DNA of 64,000 nt from Squalus acanthias (lineage: Eukaryota): positions 11,594,001 to 11,658,000 of the forward strand of contig CM059447.1 of NCBI GenBank assembly GCA_030390025.1, read 5' to 3'. The position numbers and the translations under genes are program-made. Under the pieces are notes generated by a model that saw only the letters and a list, made by a program, of their open reading frames with translations, ran no database searches and was not told the DNA's origin. Below, in pieces: positions 21,586-61,931 of this stretch; position 1 is the first letter of the stretch, and each line of letters starts with the position of its first letter.

Positions 21586-23289
21586 GGCCGGAATGTTGCC
21601 TACCTGGGCAGGTTTAGTGCGGGCGGTGTCCGTGGTGGGTCATGACCCCGCTGCTGGCTCCATCTCGCTGCTGAAAATGACTTTCCCTTAATAGGGCCTA
21701 TTAAAGCCGCCCAGCGCGTTACCCAGCCCAATTAAATGGTGCGGGTCTGGTGACATCATCGATGACCCGTTTTCAGCCAGGATCTTTAAAGGGGCCACAG
21801 GCCACATTGGATTTGAATATCAATGTAACATAGTTCTGTCAGTGCACTACAGCATTGGAGTGCTGCAAACACTGACAAAGACTGCACAGAGGCAGAGGGC
21901 AGCACCCAGGTTCTCCGATGACTCCCTCCATATGCTTATGGAGGGAGTCAGAGCAAGCAGGAAGGTCCTCTTCCCTTCCAATGGGTGGAAGAGACCTCCC
22001 CAGGACTCCAAAACAGCAGAGGAGGTCTCCAGCAGGGATGTGATCAGGAGGACATGGGTGCAGTGCCGCAAACGTTTCAATGATCTCATTAGATCAGGAA
22101 ACGTGAGTACAAAGCCACACTCACCTTCATCCTGCTGTGCCTCTCATCACATCCCATAACTCTGCCTTCCCAACCCTACCCCTGCACATCCTTACTCACA
22201 CCAACATACCTTGCATGTCCATCCATCACTCTCTCTCTATCTACATGATCGCATCCCCATCTCACTAGCCACCCCTCTCACTCACCCTCATCCTAGTGCA
22301 ATCACACCAACTAACAACACACAAGGAGGCCACTTGGGTGTTTTATTCAATGTTTATGTAAAGTTTCCGTTAATGTGCTGTCAGATATAAAAATCTTTAT
22401 CTTCAACACCTTCTGGTGTTGGACAGATTTGTGTGCACCTTTGGAAGTGGCATAGTGAGTTGCAGTGAATGGTGAGACATAACGGTACCTCCAGCAATGG
22501 TAGTGAGTCTGAAAGGAATGGCTTGGTCATTGCAGGGATGCTTTATGGTGTTACTGTGGGGTGGTGCCAACCTGGTGCATCAGGGTGTACAGTATCAAGT
22601 GATGTAAATCTGGCCATGATGAGGCCATCCCTGGCCTCCCGGGCAGCAATGTGCTCGGGTGCTGATGCCCTCTGTCCTGTGCAGCATCAGGTGATTGCGG
22701 AGAAGGTTGGTGTTGTTGTTGGTGCTGCTGGTGTTGGGCCACATCGTGGTCAGATTCTGAGGACCAAGGTGAGGCAGTATAAACGGCATCCATGCTGATG
22801 GAATAGATGGCAGGTGAAGTAGAGATGACAGGTGCAATCTCTCAATGGTGAGAGACTTTGCTGGAAAGACTGCAGCCTTCAGAATCTGTGCTGGGAATGC
22901 AGTGAGAAACAGCTTCTGCTGAGGAAAGTGATCATCTGTCAGGTGGGAGCTTTTATAGTACATTTGATGCTGTCAACTAATCAGCTGGAGCAATTGCCAT
23001 TGAACTCCCGCCTCAGGTTGACAGACGTGGTTCCCGAGCAGCATGTTTCCTGTGGCCATGCAGTTAAATTTAAAAGGCAAGGTTAAAACCACTCTTAAGG
23101 GTCTGACAACTCGCTACTAATAATTTCAATTGAGTCGCCCGCCTCTGCCGGTCGGGTCGGGTCCGCGCTGACAGACACGCCTGGGGGAAACGCGTGTGGG
23201 AGCGGGATGACAGCGGGTTCCCAACCCGCTCCCAAAAATAGCAACTTTCCCACCCGACCCGCCCACTATCACCCCGGAAAATTCCGGCC
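21586..23289. mobile_element. Non-autonomous Harbinger element (1.70 kb) with Myb exon 1 and the same transposase remnant
   Basis: TIRs GGCCGGAATGTT ... AAAATTCCGGCC; TSD TAT/TAT. Myb/SANT fragment RAAPRFSDDSLHMLMEGV...RRTWVQCRKRFNDLIRSG|GTGAGT (+, ~21880-22102). Minus-strand remnant at 22551-22793 is homologous to 28799-29025. Confidence 0.87.
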
Positions 23290-23593: not shown

Positions 23594-24323
23594 GGGCTGG
23601 ATTTTCAATGACCCGTGGAGTCGGGTTTGGAGGCGTGTGGGGGGTTAAAGTTGCAGATTCGGGGGTCCCGACCCCATCCCGCCTCCACGCAATTTTGACA
23701 AAATCGGTCGCGGGGTTCCCGACTCCGTCCCGCCTCCAAGAGGCGGGAGAGGCCATTAAAGCCCTTAACAAGCCCTAAATTGGCTCTGTAATGCCAGTTT
23801 GAAACGTTTCAGCTAGTTTAACCCTTTTCCGACGTGAAGTACGCCTGATGTGAAACACGCCAGTGAAACCTGGCGGGAGCACAAGTGGATAGCTGACTAT
23901 CAGCTGCAGGTCCACTATTACAACGGAGATGTGATGAAGGTAGTAGTAGTATTAGGTCTGAAAGTCGCCTCTGATGCTGCTGCATTGAATGTCTTCAGAG
24001 ACTGCCTGGGAGGACTTGGTTGCAAAAAAAATTCTCTCTCTCTCTCTCTCTCTGAGAAGCTGCTCATTTTGCATCCAGGTCCTCTCACAGCAAAGGCCAG
24101 GCAATCTCTGAGACCAGGCAGTCTCTGACCTGCAATGATGACATCATCAGAGGCGACTTTCAGACTGAAACCACTAATTGGTTCATGGGTTCCCACATGC
24201 TGGAACTCAATTGCCCAATTAAGTGAAAATTGCATCAATCTCCCACATCCAATTGCAGTCGGGTGGATAACACGAAATGCGGATGACACGACCCCAACCC
24301 GCCCCAGTATCAAAATCCAGCCC
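23594..24323. mobile_element. Harbinger MITE (730 bp), deletion derivative of the 28276-31545 family
   Basis: Perfect 12-bp TIR GGGCTGGATTTT/AAAATCCAGCCC; TSD TAT/TAT. Both subterminal regions match 28276-28600 and 31350-31545 (e.g. TGAC[A/G]TCATCAGAGGCGACTTT, GGTTCCCACATGC, TCAATTGCCCAATT). Confidence 0.88.
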
Positions 24324-27100: not shown

Positions 27101-28798
27101 ATGTACTCCACCACTGAAGTATAACTGCAGCCTTGGCGACATTTTGGAAAGAGAAAGTTATCTCGTCACCCAAGTGCCAGTAGGTGACTACAGTAAGGAA
27201 TAATCATACCTCTCAACTGCCCATTTTGTAATCGAGGTCAAACACCAAAGTCACCAAAATCAGCTGATTTGCCAGTTGTACAGAAAACCATGATCCCATT
27301 TTAAGAGCGAATCACGTTCCACCCTTTGAAGACATTGCTGGTTGAAAGCTCTATGGATAACTTACTATGCCACAACTTTCTACAGTGAAGACCAGAGAAT
27401 CTTTTTAAACATCAAAGTCAGGCTGCCATTATACTTCAGATAACAGTCTGAGACTAGTATATTTATCGAACAATATACAGCCAACAGACTCAAACTGCAA
27501 AGCCATTTGCTTCTCACTGTGATTCCACTGAGATGAGCAAATAGGAGCACGGCGTATGCGTACTTGCATGTGCAGCGCTCCGCTCACCAACAGCTAACCT
27601 TTAATGTTATGAGAGCAGAGGCAGGAACATCACTTTTCTCAGAACATTAAAAACAGTCAAAACTTTGTAAAACGCCGAGCCTGTTGGACTGCATGGGTAC
27701 TTTTGAAATGTGGCTCCGAACAGGGCTGAAAGTAGATCTATCCAGCACAAAGCCCAAAAAATGCAAGATCAAACAGCACAGGTAGTCTCACACCTGTTGC
27801 TCTAGCTTGCTCAAGAATCAGTTCGTCAACTTCACTCCTGAGTCTTTCACCGACGCTGAATCATAAACCATTGCATTGGCACAAGTGGCAGTTTAATGGC
27901 AACCTAAGATTAACATCAAATCTTATCAGAGAACCTGTCTTGTTTTCAATACTTTAAATACATTTTGTAACTCACTCCCAACATTGTTTTTTCTATTCTA
28001 AACTGAGGTTGCTTATTAAGAAATTAGATTAATTTCAAAGATAATCATAAATCATCTATATGTGAGGGGTACATGGCTTTTCTCACAGGATAACTTGTCT
28101 TCTAAAATCCTCAGATAATGAAACAGTCCATGCCCATCTGCAGCAAGACCTGGACAATATTCAGGCTTGGACTGGAAAGTGGCAAGTAACATCCGCGCCA
28201 CGCAAGTGCCAGGCAATGACCATCTCCAACAAGAGAGAGTCTAACCACTGCCCCCTTGACATTCATAGAGTCATAGGGCTCGATTTTGCCAGGCCCGAGG
28301 AGGCGAGATTGGAGACGTGTGAGGTGGTAAAATCGCAAAAAATGGCGGGCAGGCCCTAGCCCGCCTCCATCCCGCCTCCAAGCAATTTTCCCAAATGCGT
28401 GTTTTCTGACCCCGTTTCCATCCCGCTTCCAAGAGGCGGGATAGGCCCTTAAGGCCCTTAACAACCAGCCTCTATAATCCCACTTTGAGAGGCCTTTCTG
28501 ATTTTACCACTTTTCCCACGTCCTGCACGTCTCCTCTGGAACACGCCAGTGAATCCTGGCGGCCTCACAAGTGGATTGCTTACTAACAGCTGCGGCTCTA
28601 CCATTAAGAAGGAGTTTTCAGCAATCATCATTTGCAGGTGGCAGAACTTTGTTGTCTCAGGTCTGGGGGAACTTTTAGCAGGCATACCCATTGTTGTGGA
28701 AGTTTGGAGCCTGACACCCATCTCCAGTGTGACCTCCTGGGAAACCCCTCTCGCCACCTTGACTGAGCGCTTCCTCAACTGAGGCAGAAACCAGAAGC

Positions 28799-29025
28799 AT
28801 GGGAACCATTTATTTCCTTTCCTCCTGGACATCAGATTTGGATGAAGACCAGCCATGGCAGCAGCGGAACCATGAACAAAAGCACCACCAACAGCAGCAG
28901 CAACAACAGGAGCACCAAGCTGCTGCTCACCCACCTGAAGCTGCACAGGCCAGAAGGCGCCAGCGCGCGACCACATTGCTGCCCGGGATGCAAGGGACGC
29001 ACTCATCTTGGCCAGATTTGCTTAG
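28799..29025 (+). pseudogene. Harbinger transposase remnant: Q-rich N-terminus joined out of frame to the extreme C-terminus
   Basis: MGTIYFLSSWTSDLDED...QQQQQQQEHQAAAHPPEAAQARRRQRA, then in another frame from 28972 HIAARDARDALILARFA*, resembling a HARBI1-type C-terminal helix. No DDE core is present. Confidence 0.6.
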
Positions 29026-29283
29026 CCTGCACAATCAAACACTTTTGCCTCGCACCTTCTGATCAGACCATCGACAATGGCCAAGAACCTGCGGATTCCT
29101 ATCACTCTGACCACCATACTGACAATTGCAAGTCGTCCTAAGCCCTCAATGTGGAAGTCCCATTAGCGAAATGACACATGCCACAACTGCAACAGTTTGC
29201 CATCAGAATTTTTAATGACAATAAGCAACTGATGGCTTTTCAAATTTAAACACAACATTACACCCAAGTGACTACCCTTGTGA

Positions 29284-31265
29284 CTACTTGTGCATTATCT
29301 TCCTCTTACGCGTGCTCCTACGTGGTGCTTCCCCTGTGGCTTCAGCAGATGTGGAGGCCCCTTGCTCACTTTCTTGCTGCTCCTGTCTCGACACCTTTGG
29401 CGGGCGTCCTCTGGGGTTGCGAACCTGTGAGGGCTCGGCAACAGTCTGCTGCTCCTGCGGCTGTGCAGGGGTTGAGACGCCGATCTCAGTTGGGTGGGGA
29501 ATCTGGTGGGTCTCTGACCGAGGGCTCTGCAGTGGCATGGTCGTGTAAGCACTTGGAGAGGAGCCCCCACTTCCTTGTTGTATGCCACCAACATCCCTCT
29601 CATGGGTCAGCCCCACTTCAGACCTAGCAAGTGGCTGGACAGCACCTTGCTGCACTGCAGGGGGGCCATGAGGACCCGTTTCTGCACTGGAAGTCCTACT
29701 CCAGAGGACTTGCATGAAGGTCTGGTTTGTTTGCTCAATAGCTGACCATAGCTCCTCAAGAGATGTCAGTCTATTCTGAACAATTACCACGTTTTCCATA
29801 CCCTGGCGACTAAGCTCCTCCATGGACGTAGCCATCATCTCCTCTACCGTAGCCGTCCTCTCCTCTATGGTAGCCAGCCTTACCATGGAGGTAGCCATCC
29901 TTTCCAAGGAGGTTGCCATCCTTTCCGTGGTGATGCGTTCATGCGCCAACGCCTCCACAAAGGCTATGCTCATGTTAGCGATGGACTCCTCCATTCGCTC
30001 CACACTCGCAGCGACCCTGGAGACAAAACCTGCCAGAGACTCTTGCACCTGTTCCTGGAGTTCCAGCACCGCTCTCCTTCTGGCTGGACCCGGAGGTACA
30101 GGGTCGACATGCAGCGGAGCCGAGCTGGGAGCGTCCTCTCCACTGCGACGAGGACTCTCTACTGCTGTCCCTGTCTCCACCATCTGCTGATGCTCACTTG
30201 TGAGCTGTGATACACCAGGTGACAACTCTACTCTATGTCCCGAAGGTCTCACCGAGGTGTGAGTGTCTGCGTTGGTGCAGGGTGCGCTTAATTCTGCTGA
30301 CGCTGCACCCTCAGAGGTTGCAGCTTCCTCTGAGGAGTCTGGAAGCTCAGGCTCTTCCTCCTGGACAGTGGGGACGGGGTCTCGATGGTCCTGTGGGGGA
30401 GTAAAGGAAAGAGTTAGAGATGTGAGGTAAAGGTTGCATGCACATTGAATTGTGCAGCTGATCATAAGTCAATCTGTTAGAGCATCAGAATCATTATTAG
30501 TCACTCATGCAATGTCAATGAGAGAGATGCCAAACTATTCTGTCACCAGCTTGCTGTGATGCGCCCGCCTGTCCGTCCCCCACCTGGGAATCCTCCTCGA
30601 TCCCGGCAATTTCCAGGGCCGCCTCCTCCAAGGTGGTGAGCTGGGCTACTGAGGGTGGCCCTCCTCCTGTCCCCGCCCTTTCCCTCTTATTGTGGGCTCT
30701 CTTTTCCTGCAATGAGGGACACAAGTGGAGTTTGAGTGAGAATGAAGGAGTGAGTGTAGAGAATCCATAGCATAGATGCTTAGAAGGAGATAAAGGGCCC
30801 TCCCTGTGTGTTGTAAGTTGTTGTCATTGCATCACAGTGATAGGGAGTGTGAGGGCTGCATGGTCGAATAGTTAAGTGAATATGACCATAGAGAGAGAGG
30901 GAATGGGTAAGGGTGCAGAGATGTCAGTGTCAAGTGGGATGTGGAGGAAGAGGTTGTCAAAGCAGAGTGCTGGTGAGGAGAGGCGATGGGGATGAGATTG
31001 AGGGTGATGAGAAAGTCATACTCACTTTTCCTGTGCGGAGAAGGTCATGAAACCTCTTCCTGCACTGCAGCCAGGTTCTGCGGCACATAGAGATGGCATT
31101 GACCTCCTGGGCCACTTGCAGCCACACAGCTTTAGTCTGTTGTGGTGGCTTTTTTCTCCCTGAGGAAGGGAAGAGCACCTCCTTATTAGATCTTGCTCCC
31201 TGCACCAGAGCTTGGAGGAAGAGCTCATCAAAGCGAGGTGCACACTTTTGCTTGCTGGTGGACAT
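29284..31265 (-). CDS. Harbinger-encoded Myb/SANT-like (MSANTD/NAIF1-type) DNA-binding protein; predicted exons 31265..31026, 30706..~30547, 30390..29284
   Basis: Exon 1 MSTSKQKCAPRFDELFLQALVQGARSNKEVLFP...WLQVAQEVNA...RTWLQCRKRFHDLLRTGK|GTGAG. Exon 2 TGCAG|EKRAHNKRERAGTGGGPP. Exon 3 is about 368 open codons with heptad repeats, PRGRPP and RRSTRKRK. The exon 2/3 phase is unresolved, so it may be a frameshifted copy. Confidence 0.7.
29821..29925 (-). repeat. Five 21-bp tandem units encoding heptads ERMATSL/ERMATSM/VRLATIE/ERTATVE/EMMATSM
   Basis: Units start at 29821, 29842, 29863, 29884 and 29905. Confidence 0.85.
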
Positions 31266-31556
31266 GATCGGTAAATGAAGTCCTTCATACAATGTCCAAG
31301 GCGTTTCCAGTCTCCAGAAGAATCAAGGCTGCTTGCAGGCCTTAAATCCAACAGCATTGATGACGTCATCAGAGGCGACTTTCTGCATGAAAAGACTCAT
31401 TGGGCCAGTGGTTCCCACATGCAGGAAATCAATTGCCCAATTTGGGGAAAATCCCACTTTTTCAACACATCACTTAGGAGTCGGGGTCCTGACACAATTT
31501 CCACCTGACACGCCCCAGCCCGCCCACACTGACAAAATCCAGCCCATAGAGTCTAC

Positions 31557-32402
31557 GGGTGCAATCTTGCCAGCCCTGGGGAGGCGGGTATGGAGGCAGG
31601 ACTGCCGGGAAAATGGCAGAATTTGGGGGCGGGTGCCCAACCCGCCCCCAACCCACCTCCATGCCAACTTGCCAGGAGGCAGGTAGCCGTCCCGCGCCGG
31701 GTCCCGTCTCCTTGGAGGTGGGAAGGGATTACAGCCACTTAAGTGCCTGTTAACAGGTAGTTAACAGGCAGAAAATAGGCTTATCACCATTTGCCCTCAC
31801 AAGTGCGGGCTTCCCGAAGGCTCCGAACCCCCCCCAGGGTCACCGAGGCGAGTAGTGGGTCTGCGGGGGTCTGCGGGGTGCAAAAGTGCGCTGTGAAGGT
31901 GAGTGATGGGTGCAAGTGTGGAGAGGTGAGTATCTGAGGTAAGTGGAAAGTGTTAGAAAAAGTGTACTTACCTTTGTTTCTTCCTGCAGGCTTCAATCGC
32001 AGGGTGTGCGGAGAGTCTCGCACCTCCGCGGTAGAGATGACAGATGGCCATTGCATTCTCAGATGCAGAAACTATCTCATTTCTGCAAAAGAAAGAGGTT
32101 TGATGAGGTCTTGAATTCAAGACCTCATCAAACAACAGAGAATGTCACTGTTTGACAGCTTCACAGAGCTGTCAAACGATGACAATTCATCTGTCAAAAG
32201 TTTTTGACAGCTGAAACGTCATACGCTGACGTTCTCTGCAACCGGCTTTCCCTTAATTGGCCTGCTAAGCCCATTGGGCGGGCTTAACAAGGTCAATCAG
32301 GAGAAAATAGCGTGGGTTGGCCAGAAGTTGATGGAGGCGGGACTAAAACCCAACAAGTGGGAGTCCCGCCTCCAAAAGCTCCCCATTGGCAAAATCACCC
32401 CC
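31557..32402. mobile_element. Harbinger-type MITE (~850 bp) next to the 3.27 kb element
   Basis: Imperfect TIRs GGGTGCAATCTTGCC ... GGCAAAATCACCCCC (11/15); GC-rich arms with GGAGGCGGG/CCCGCCTCC motifs; TSD not cleanly preserved. Confidence 0.7.
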
Positions 32403-58974: not shown

Positions 58975-59080
58975 CCCATAACCCGCCCCTTAAACTTTGA
59001 ACCAATTGCACAGATGGAAACCAGTAGGCGGTTTATTCCGATTGGTGCCTGCAAGTTTATGCCCCTCTATTTAGCAAGTC
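58975..59080 (+). promoter_or_regulatory. SOX9 proximal promoter: GC box, two CCAAT boxes, TATA-like element
   Basis: CCCGCCCC 58982-58989, CCAAT 59002-59006, inverted CCAAT (ATTGG) 59041-59045, TATTTA 59068-59073, about 190 nt before the ATG. Same element types as in the characterised mammalian SOX9 promoter. TSS not determined. Confidence 0.7.
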
Positions 59081-59165
59081 AAATATACTCAGCAGACAGC
59101 CCGAGTTCCAGCAACAGAGCCACTTGGTTACAACTCCGAGCGGATTGGAAAGTTTCTCCGCAGAC

Positions 59166-59183
59166 AGAGAGAGAGAGAGAGAG
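59166..59183 (+). repeat. (AG)n microsatellite in the putative SOX9 5'UTR
   Basis: Direct reading. Similar (CT)n tracts at ~24033, ~41061, ~53020 and ~60329. Confidence 0.9.
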
Positions 59184-59260
59184 AACAAATTAAGCAAGTT
59201 CTCCACTACTACCATTTTATTTCCTTCCAGTTGCCTAGTGCAGTCGCCTCTTCTTTTTGC

Positions 59261-59697
59261 ATGAATCTCCTCAATCCCTTCCTGAAAATGACAGAAGAAC
59301 ACGAAAAGACGCTCTCCGACGTGCCCAGCCCCACCATGTCGGAGGAATCGGCCGATTCCCCGTGCGGATCTGGGGCTGGCTCCGACGCCGAGAACACCAA
59401 GCCCGGCGAGAACGGCCAGGACGATCTGTGCGCCCAGAGCCTGGATTCCAAGAAAGAGGACGACGACAAGTTCCCGGCGTGTATCCGGGAGGCGGTGACC
59501 CAGGTGCTGAAAGGATACGACTGGACCCTGGTGCCCATGCCCGTCCGTGTTAATGGCTCGTCCAAGAACAAACCTCATGTCAAAAGACCCATGAACGCCT
59601 TCATGGTCTGGGCTCAGGCAGCACGCCGAAAGCTGGCTGATCAATATCCCCATCTGCACAACGCAGAACTCAGCAAAACCCTGGGCAAACTGTGGAG
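59261..59697 (+). CDS. SOX9: SOX9 coding exon 1
   Basis: ATG at 59261; ends ...CTG TGG AG|GTGAGT (donor 59698), splitting the HMG box at the canonical SoxE position. Confidence 0.97.
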
Positions 59698-61931
59698 GTG
59701 AGTGGCCCTGACTTTGCACATTTCATCTCAATCAAGTTTTAGCGAATGGTAGATTGTTGAAGGTGGCAGTTCGGTGCACGGTAATTTTTATGCTCGTTTT
59801 GCATCTGTTCCAAAAAACCAATCTCCCCAGCCTGTTTCTAAATAATATGCATGAATTATTTCATGTACAACACATGGGATTTGTTTTTATTTAGAATGAA
59901 TGGCTTGATCTTTGATCGATGCAGTAAAGCACTCAGATAAAAGGCATTCCTCCTGGATTGAAACAGTATCTTGCGCGCTGAGTTGTATCTGAAGTAGTTT
60001 GGATGTAGAGGGACTTTTTTTTTTGCACATCTTACCGTGGAAACAAACACGCGTGGAAATGAATGCATTTGAGTAAAAGAGTCGTACGTCAAACGATTAA
60101 GAGTTAGCTTGCAGAATGCAACAAAACCAATCCTCTCATTGAGGCCAGGAAAGATTTAGAGAGTGCAAAACTTCACCGCAGACGGTGCTTTGCATGGATT
60201 GGTGCTGGGGGCGAGCTGTGCAGAAATGAAAGGGTTCAGGCGCGTTTTATTCCTGGTGAAAGTTGGTGCCTGTCTGCTCAGGGGAGGGTTGGACGTCAGA
60301 ACGAGTTTGGTTGGTTTAAGAGAGATTTTCTCTCTCTCTCTCTCTCTTGAGTTGAGTCTCAGTTGAACCTGTCTTGGCCGCGCGGTAATTGGAAAGGAGA
60401 CTTGTCAACAAAAAAAATCGATCCGATCGAATTCCTTTACAGTTCACTTAGCCCATCTCCAAACCGGCTTTGGCTGAACGTGTCCCGACAGAAACCTGGG
60501 GATCCGCCTGAGCTTACTGGCTCTGAGATAAATGCAACAGTTTAAAAAGAGAGGAGGAAAAAAAAAGTTTTTGGAATTATGCATAAACTGATGTCACATA
60601 CATTGTGATTTCCTGCTTTGCAAACGCCCCCATCGTCAACACGGTGCTGAAGCTGGCCGCTATAGATTTTATTATTATTTTTTTGAAATCGGGAGCATTG
60701 TTATTAATATATTTTTTTTGCTTTCCGGGTTGGCTACAGATTGCTCAACGAGGGCGAGAAGCGCCCATTCGTGGAGGAAGCCGAGCGCCTGAGGGTGCAG
60801 CACAAGAAGGATCACCCCGACTACAAATACCAGCCCAGGCGGAGGAAGTCGGTGAAGAACGGGCAGGGCGAGAGCGAGGAGGGAGCCGACCAGACTCACA
60901 TCACCCCCAACGCGCTCTTCAAAGCCCTGCAGGCGGACTCCCCGCACTCCGCCTCCAGCATGAGCGATGTGCATTCTCCCGGAGAACACTCAGGTAAAGG
61001 GCAGAGACGTGGAAATAGTGATTGAGACTGAGATAACCGGGCAAAAGCTAAATGCATTCTGTCTTGATAAGTTGCGAACTTTTTTTTAAAAAAAAAACAC
61101 ATTGAGAAGTAAGTTGGTTTGGAGATTGGGATATGTTGCACACGTAAGCTGTGGCAGGTCGGAATAATAAACTGACTTCTATTTTTCTGACCCTTAGGGC
61201 AATCTCAAGGACCACCGACGCCTCCCACCACTCCCAAAACAGAAGTCCAGCCTGGTAAACCTGATCTGAAACGTGAAGGTCGCCCCCTGCAGGAAGGAGG
61301 GAGACAGCCTCACATTGATTTCAGCAATGTGGACATTGGAGAACTCAGCAGCGAGGTCATGTCGAACATGGAGACGTTCGATGTCAACGAGTTTGACCAG
61401 TACCTCCCACCCAATGGGCACCCAGGAGTTCCAGTCACCCACGCCGGCCATGGACAGAGTGCTCAGGCCACCTACACAGGCAGCTACGGGATTAGCAGCA
61501 CTTCGGTCAGCCAGGCAGCCCACCCTTGGTTGTCCAAGCAGCATTCCATGACGAGCCTCACCAGTGAGCCGGGACAGCAGCAGAGGACACACATCAAGAC
61601 AGAGCAGCTGAGCCCCAGCCACTACAACGAGCAGCAGCACTCGCCCCAGCAGATCAACTACGGCTCCTTCAATATGCAACACTACAGTTCATCTTACCCA
61701 TCCATTCCTCGTACCCAGTACGAATATTCAGACCACCAGAATACCAATTCCTATTACAGCCATGCTGCGGGGCAGACCACCGGCCTGTACTCCACCTTCA
61801 CCTACATGAGTCCATCCCAGCGCCCCATGTACACACCCATTGCAGACACCACGGGAGTCCCTTCCATCCCCCAAACCCACAGTCCGCAGCACTGGGAGCA
61901 GCCAGTCTACACACAGCTGACCAGACCTTAA
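59261..61931 (+). CDS. SOX9: SOX9 (SoxE HMG-box transcription factor), 3 exons: join(59261..59697,60740..60993,61198..61931), 474 aa
   Basis: N-terminus [13 protein letters not shown], dimerisation domain [30 protein letters not shown] box [79 protein letters not shown]-terminus [17 protein letters not shown] introns in phase 2 and 1; exons 437+254+734 = 1425 nt, open throughout. The termini distinguish it from SOX8 and SOX10. Confidence 0.98.
60740..60993 (+). CDS. SOX9: SOX9 coding exon 2
   Basis: Acceptor ...GGCTACAG|A TTG CTC AAC; donor CAC TCA G|GTAAAG; 254 nt. Confidence 0.97.
61198..61931 (+). CDS. SOX9: SOX9 coding exon 3
   Basis: Acceptor ...TTTTTCTGACCCTTAG|GG CAA TCT ([14 protein letters not shown]); K2 domain, IKTE motif, PQS transactivation tail; TAA at 61929-61931. 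Confidence 0.97.

Follow-up and report, generated by a model that had tools for sequence, protein, structure and literature searches.

How does a transposon spread when it has lost the gene for its nuclease and kept the gene for the DNA-binding partner of that nuclease? The question is raised by a PIF/Harbinger element in a 64,000-nucleotide (nt) stretch of the Squalus acanthias genome (assembly GCA_030390025.1, contig CM059447.1, positions 11,594,001 to 11,658,000), which we call the window and whose numbering is used throughout. Harbinger transposition requires two proteins, a transposase together with a Myb-like protein that binds the element ends and carries the transposase into the nucleus, according to work cited in PMC9392472 and PMC9179366. 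The window element, at 28276-31545, retains the Myb/SANT-like gene and a short remnant of the transposase, and the initial annotation had read it as a possible semi-autonomous lineage that supplies its own targeting subunit and borrows a nuclease in trans, or as a source of new MSANTD-like genes. We arrive at a different reading, which we regard as probable: the window copy is a frameshifted member of a non-autonomous family of about 2,000 copies, which arose by a single deletion, is mobilised in trans and has repeatedly picked up its Myb gene by recombination.

A transposase deletion between intact ends

The element measures 3,270 nt and is bounded by terminal inverted repeats (TIRs) and an ATA target site duplication (TSD), in agreement with the ~3.27 kb first described. 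Its TIRs are short, as in other PIF/Harbinger elements, and identical at 15 of 17 positions. What is left of the transposase spans 227 nt from the ATG at 28799 to a TAG at 29025, close to the ~230 bp reported initially, and consists of a glutamine-rich stretch followed, in another frame, by the final 18 codons of the transposase. The upstream in-frame start used by open autonomous copies is a CTG here, at 28763, and a Pfam search with the N-terminal remnant reading found no DDE family match. With 1,018 nt absent, the element does not contain the intact transposase of an autonomous Harbinger element. The product of its second gene has the domain expected of a PIF/Harbinger partner protein, exon 1 matching PF13873 with an E value of 9.4e-11 and 42 bits, against a cut-off of 21.7. 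The features are:

28273..28275, forward strand: left TSD, ATA, adjoining the left TIR
28276..28292, forward strand: left TIR, 17 nt; autonomous copies have the same terminus
28763..28966, forward strand: N-terminal transposase remnant
28966..28967, no strand: deletion junction, transposase core gone, imperfect 6-nt microhomology
28967..29025, forward strand: C-terminal transposase remnant and stop, out of frame relative to the N-terminal piece
29284..30390, reverse strand: Myb exon 3, 1,107 nt here against 1,109 nt in the family; 29820-29926 holds a 21-nt tandem repeat
30375..30380, reverse strand: private 2-nt deletion ~12 nt past the start of exon 3, shifting the frame so that a stop follows codon 147
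30547..30706, reverse strand: Myb exon 2, 160 nt, phase-1 donor at 30546, from the alignment of family copies
30707..31025, reverse strand: Myb intron 1 (GT..AG), from family splice sites and contig joints in two runs guessed to be RNA
31026..31265, reverse strand: Myb exon 1, 240 nt, Myb/SANT-like domain, Pfam PF13873 (Myb_DNA-bind_5)
31529..31545, reverse strand: right TIR, 17 nt, pairing with the left TIR
31546..31548, forward strand: right TSD, ATA, adjoining the right TIR

One deletion gave rise to a large family

In the 3.7 Gb genome, a search with the whole element returned 44 matches from 40 scored candidates, most of them full length at 91-96%. A pattern spanning the deletion junction had 1,359 exact matches genome-wide and a pattern in the C-terminal remnant had 1,144; the reversed control of each had 0. 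Calibrated on the 40 copies from the whole-element search, of which the two patterns match 23 and 22, respectively, the transposase-less family comprises ~2,000-2,400 copies, a rough figure, as the calibration sample is biased toward close copies. We also collected the first 41 C-terminal-pattern matches on contig 1 and left out one that had already been sampled; all 40 of these positional copies carry the deleted form. The junction matches and the positional copies rule out a one-off deletion of an autonomous element, an outcome that the initial annotation had allowed for, and the locus thus belongs to an amplified Harbinger family with a Myb gene and no DDE frame.

This family descends from one event. 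The junction is alike across nine subfamily representatives, and only 2 of 3,270 columns separate 69 transposase-less copies from 51 autonomous copies (described below): 28971, which lies 4 nt from the junction and carries a derived base in 67/69 transposase-less and 1/50 autonomous copies, and 28522 (56/67 and 3/51). Since the representatives share the same junction, and one of just two class-separating columns lies beside it, the family arose through a single 1,018-nt deletion. After 6 of 80 transposase-less loci had been dropped as incomplete within the fetched stretch, a tree of the remaining 74 copies resolved at least seven subfamilies, whose members lie 1.6-3.6% from their own column majority. 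Two loci, one degraded (L045) and one a near-duplicate of another (L011, of L010), were dropped from the analysis of rare changes, and removal of three further rows with long insertions left the 69-row set.

The 3-bp TSD is perfect in 38 of 67 copies, with one mismatch in 15 more, and is variable and A/T-rich, ATA/TAT accounting for 13 of the 38 perfect cases, AAA/TTT for 6 and TAA/TTA for 2. This departs from a TWA consensus; we treat it as an A/T-rich variant and not as a bar to PIF/Harbinger membership. The TSD sits in a palindromic flank, roughly GASWC-NNN-GWSTC, with an A at position -4 in 66 of the 76 symmetrised sites from the 38 copies.

Complete sister elements in the same genome

A pattern that combines the N-terminal remnant with the non-junction bases following it gave 154 matches, and 18 of 20 hand-picked loci among them contain the transposase core. 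Seventeen of these 18 match the window element at 81-92% over the shared parts, the remaining one at 78-84%. The autonomous elements are ~4.3 kb long, have the same TIRs as the window element and differ from the transposase-less family mainly by the 1,018-nt core. A pattern inside this core has 592 exact matches genome-wide, the counterpart, in the comparison of copies with and without transposase proposed earlier, to the 1,359 junction matches; match rates of 14/20 and 6/18 place the autonomous family at roughly 850-1,800 copies. From 80 candidate loci, 29 were left out because they were short of full length, overlong or too distant, and 8 of the resulting 51 full-length copies have an open transposase of 414-416 amino acids; the one at L273 matches DDE_Tnp_4 (PF13359) at 130.9 bits. 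A source of nuclease in trans, as the initial annotation had supposed, therefore exists. By distance from the column majority, the two classes are also of like age, at 2.1% for autonomous subfamilies a1 and a2, 2.3% for transposase-less A and 1.9% for F and G. To judge from the shared TIRs and the ages, the deleted form, which kept both ends, would have been mobilised by the transposase of its complete sisters, which would also have made Myb.

Two other routes did not lead to the parent. A first negative pattern gave an older sister deletion family, considered below, and a distant, decayed autonomous family (~65-85% local identity). A genome search with Pfam DDE_Tnp_4 gave instead another, young Harbinger family (L081-L110), in which 29 of 30 loci had no DNA match to the element; many of its open transposase frames, of ~391 amino acids, are near-identical, which suggests that it was active very recently.

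Probable exchange of segments between the two classes

The Myb genes do not follow the division into classes. Their tree needs four changes of class label, with transposase-less subfamilies interleaved among autonomous ones (F beside a2, G beside a3, A/B beside a1), and constraining the transposase-less Myb genes to one clade was rejected by 457 log-likelihood units (approximately unbiased test, p-AU 3e-64), using three rows per subfamily, 43 of 120 rows. In subfamily F the mosaic can be followed along the element: the first 36 informative columns, to 29423, are A-type in 34 cases; a middle part of ~1.8 kb, from 29623 to about 31390, is of the autonomous a2 type with 2 exceptions, introns included; and at the right end the last 3 informative columns are A-type again. 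Mosaic haplotypes thus join the two classes, and because the tracts include introns, the template of exchange was DNA. Exon 1 points to imported segments as well: subfamilies differ there by 3-14%, with A1 and A2 counted apart, but in intron 1 by only 1-6%. The most variable part is the right end, 31266-31545, with the Myb promoter and subterminal region, which differs by up to 20% between subfamilies; that of subfamily A1 differs by 14% from the closest autonomous copy in the sample, and the A1 donor is therefore unsampled.

We infer that such exchange could have come about by template switching or conversion during excision-gap repair. Gaps repaired from other family members would either move the junction to new backgrounds or overwrite the Myb gene of the deleted form.

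Constraint between subfamilies and decay after insertion

A ratio of non-synonymous to synonymous substitution rates (dN/dS) below 1 among transposase-less subfamilies had been put forward as support for semi-autonomy, and the ratio is indeed low: 0.10-0.32 in exon 1, mostly 0.15-0.65 in exon 2 and about 1 in exon 3, with 30 synonymous and 18 non-synonymous diagnostic alleles in exon 1 (p 7e-7). The test is passed, but it does not support the inference, as the alleles concerned are common to autonomous copies. Altogether, 62 of 70 (89%) diagnostic exon 1-2 alleles of the transposase-less subfamilies occur in at least two autonomous copies (37/42 synonymous ones, chance 0.37; 25/28 non-synonymous ones, chance 0.16), and alleles confined to autonomous subfamilies have a similar synonymous excess in exon 1, 25 to 20. 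After this comparison, we set aside the low dN/dS between subfamilies as a sign of semi-autonomy. Of the 21 coding alleles private to transposase-less subfamilies, 7 are synonymous and 14 are not, in accord with neutrality across the whole coding sequence (neutral share 0.72, p 0.63). Given the alleles common to both classes, the rejection of a single clade and the tract in subfamily F, the low dN/dS between transposase-less subfamilies was probably for the most part imported by recombination from autonomous copies.

Once inserted, the Myb open reading frames decay neutrally. Among 72 copies, 39 of them from a best-match search that favours less damaged copies, rare post-insertion changes number 204 synonymous and 524 non-synonymous, a ratio 0.93 of that expected from non-coding sites. 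Transposase-less copies do not have an open Myb frame more often (3/69) than autonomous ones (7/51; Fisher p 0.095). On the reading that we favour, Myb is a passenger of the deleted form, open in master copies through little mutation between bursts and through overwriting from autonomous copies, where it would be under selection; Myb protein from young transposase-less copies would join a common pool and not favour its own element.

Myb is not needed in cis

A second deletion, from 29276 to about 29868, is present in 4 of the 40 positional copies and removes the last 195 Myb codons and the stop; the subfamily that bears it has been amplified. An older, decayed, transposase-deleted sister family (L161-L180, L111-L140) is 69-86% identical to the window remnant and has its junction at the homologous place, and beside the remnant only Myb exon 1 matches, in 16 of 20 loci. 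Its junction may reflect shared origin or recurrent deletion at a microhomology. Two related elements lie within the window:

21890-22838, remnants on the reverse strand: decayed copy of the older sister family, with N- and C-terminal transposase remnants and Myb exon 1 (49% amino-acid identity)
23594-24323: non-coding miniature inverted-repeat transposable element (MITE), 730 nt; its TIR is that of the studied family, its duplication is TAT, and it is 73-76% like the ends of the family

As the Myb-truncated subfamily was amplified, the older sister family shows matches to exon 1 only and the MITE shares the TIR, Myb is dispensable in cis.

The joint formed by the Myb-truncating deletion (window 29275-29870) was also seen in runs X2 and X3, in contigs labelled as another organism, and the Myb-truncated subfamily may therefore predate a species split.

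Expression

The expression data comprised nine runs guessed to be RNA, with three other organism labels, and their contigs show presence only. A first look showed 15 of 32 contig joints, none of them at an intron, and a second listed 8, of which one was at intron 1. An exact intron 1 joint occurs in one contig in each of two runs guessed to be RNA, which come from two different studies and carry two labels of related organisms; depth was 7 and 12, the sides measured 20 and 28 nt, and likeness was thresholded at 80%. Among the joints listed there was none at intron 2. The intron 1 joint weakly supports the gene model of the family, autonomous and deleted copies being indistinguishable as its source.

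Does the deleted lineage maintain its own Myb?

The strongest alternative is a semi-autonomous helper lineage that makes functional Myb and is under selection to do so, whether because this benefits its own ends locally or because conversion tracts carrying a Myb matched to the current transposase amplify better. Several observations lend it weight and count against Myb as a passenger. The Myb frame is open in the majority sequence of 6 of the 7 subfamilies tested (A1, A2, D, E, F, G), and GT/AG splice sites are kept in 7/7; the broken frame of subfamily C is probably a tie among 4 copies, its shared deletion being 42 nt long. Private exon 1-2 alleles are 5 synonymous to 3 non-synonymous (p 0.047; n=8, and 1 to 2 without CpG sites), and stops among rare changes are in mild deficit, 31 against 41.7 expected. 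The tract in subfamily F spans the greater part of the Myb gene, a pattern that an advantage of fresh Myb alleles would produce; the direction of exchange is drawn from parsimony only, and the autonomous sample is 51 of about 850-1,800 copies. The long form also predominates, 36 of 40 positional copies lying outside the Myb-truncated subfamily. Further support comes from the exon 1 dN/dS between subfamilies, from the excess of junction over core matches, from the intron 1 joint, whichever class it stems from, and from a like asymmetry in Caenorhabditis inopinata (PMC13668399).

We nevertheless consider a helper lineage unlikely. Most of its diagnostic exon 1-2 alleles occur in autonomous copies, its private alleles across the whole coding sequence fit neutrality, and open Myb frames are not enriched in it. 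As a rule, the proteins encoded by eukaryotic DNA transposons work in trans and give no preference to the copy that made them. The in-frame 42-nt repeat contractions of subfamilies C and F, too, are present in autonomous copies. Selection on a targeting subunit made by the lineage itself is thus unsupported, in view of the neutral decay, the shared alleles and the amplification of a subfamily with truncated Myb. Similarly doubtful, though worth stating, is a two-class vertebrate Harbinger system in which the deletion allele has persisted through bursts by capturing the current Myb and ends, and is selected for a working Myb that acts as helper or titrating regulator.

A recurrent origin of the deletion, at the microhomology of separate autonomous subfamilies, is far less probable; on that view the mosaic would be only apparent and would call for no exchange. 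The Myb gene of each transposase-less subfamily does group with a different autonomous subfamily, and the older family, ~25% diverged, has its junction at the homologous place; however, the derived bases at 28971 and 28522 are common across subfamilies, and A-type ends around an a2-type middle are impossible by independent deletion, which contradicts this explanation for subfamily F.

The window copy is a frameshifted pseudogene

The initial annotation had noted that the donor of exon 2 is out of phase with the acceptor of exon 3, and proposed either a 1-nt frameshift or use of a phase-0 donor, CAG/GTGGGG, near 30583. The conflict is real, and aligning the window copy to the 29 copies that match it best traces it to a private 2-nt deletion instead: 2 nt near 30379/30380 are present in all 29 other copies and absent here, the sole coding indel private to the window copy. 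Since the 29 others keep these 2 nt, the donor used in the family is the phase-1 site at 30546. The phase-0 donor was rejected, its enabling base being present in only 2/69 transposase-less and 0/51 autonomous copies. With the 2 nt restored, the family gene amounts to 240+160+1,109 = 1,509 nt, or 502 codons; under the family splice sites, the window copy meets its first stop after 147 codons. The description of the gene as nearly intact therefore applies to the family master and not to the product of this copy; exon 3 here has an open stretch of 368 codons.

The window copy itself is ordinary and broken. Although Harbinger Myb genes have been domesticated several times in vertebrates (PMC9392472), the chance that it is becoming a host Myb/SANT gene of the MSANTD type, or a source of one, is negligible: it has a private frameshift and early stop, differs from its subfamily by 17 amino-acid and 9 silent changes, retains intact TIRs and TSD, and is one of thousands of copies and not a single fixed copy with an intact frame.

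Relation to known systems

The closest parallel is Harbinger-1M_cIno of C. inopinata (Sato et al. 2026, PMC13668399), in which elements with only a MADF gene have expanded, a DDE protein in trans was inferred, and the arrangement was called previously unreported. That account gives 19 MADF-only elements, of which 14 are intact, a single intact DDE gene, no intact two-gene element and recent activity. Both systems have TIRs and a 3-bp TSD, a DNA-binding (MADF or Myb-like) gene without DDE, accompanying MITE derivatives and an inferred transposase in trans. The dogfish-shark family in the window differs in its ~2,000 copies, with 3/69 Myb frames open, in a large two-gene family of the same age and in the evidence of segment exchange between classes; the sections of the C. 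inopinata account on which we draw contain no dN/dS or recombination test. Our family extends DNA-binding-gene-only Harbinger derivatives, known from a nematode, to a vertebrate, in a large genome and at a copy number about hundredfold above that of the kind described in 2026. A search by title and the start of the abstract, outside Repbase, most subscription journals and supplements, found no vertebrate Myb-only Harbinger family in the literature, and a prior annotation is possible.

The parent family shares with zebrafish Harbinger3_DR (Sinzelle et al. 2008, as cited in PMC9392472 and PMC9179366) the two-gene plan, short TIRs and 3-bp TSD; the window element differs from it in the missing DDE core, in TSDs that are mostly not TAA/TTA (2/38) and in the palindromic flank. 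A survey of teleost Harbinger elements, in the parts considered here, reports no single-reading-frame Harbinger and calls recombination between sublineages rare; it deals with family consensus sequences, whereas the exchange described here took place within one family. In Medicago MtPH (PMC2213677), as here, the non-autonomous members derive directly, by deletion, from an autonomous element resident in the same genome, which is modelled there by abortive gap repair; unlike here, the classes are transposase-only or non-coding, and its table lists no amplified orf1-only class. NAIF1 and MSANTD1-4 likewise have a Myb/SANT-like domain of Harbinger origin; they are fixed, syntenic host genes, in contrast to the multicopy mobile element and frameshifted gene of the window (PMC9392472).

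The family also warns against taking low dN/dS among non-autonomous subfamilies by itself as evidence of semi-autonomy or domestication, since recombination with autonomous relatives can import it. Its single junction, in turn, provides a marker for mapping within-family conversion tracts of a DNA transposon over thousands of copies.

Neighbouring features

A second TIR-bounded element, apparently non-coding and with internal hairpins, occupies 31557-32402 and begins 11 nt past the studied element. Both interrupt an octamer repeat, ATAGAGTC, which we take to be the tail of a long interspersed nuclear element (LINE). About 28 kb downstream of the studied element, at 59075-61928, lies a SoxE-type gene with Sox_N and HMG_box Pfam matches; a frame at 61191-61928, itself without a Pfam match, resembles a SoxE last exon.

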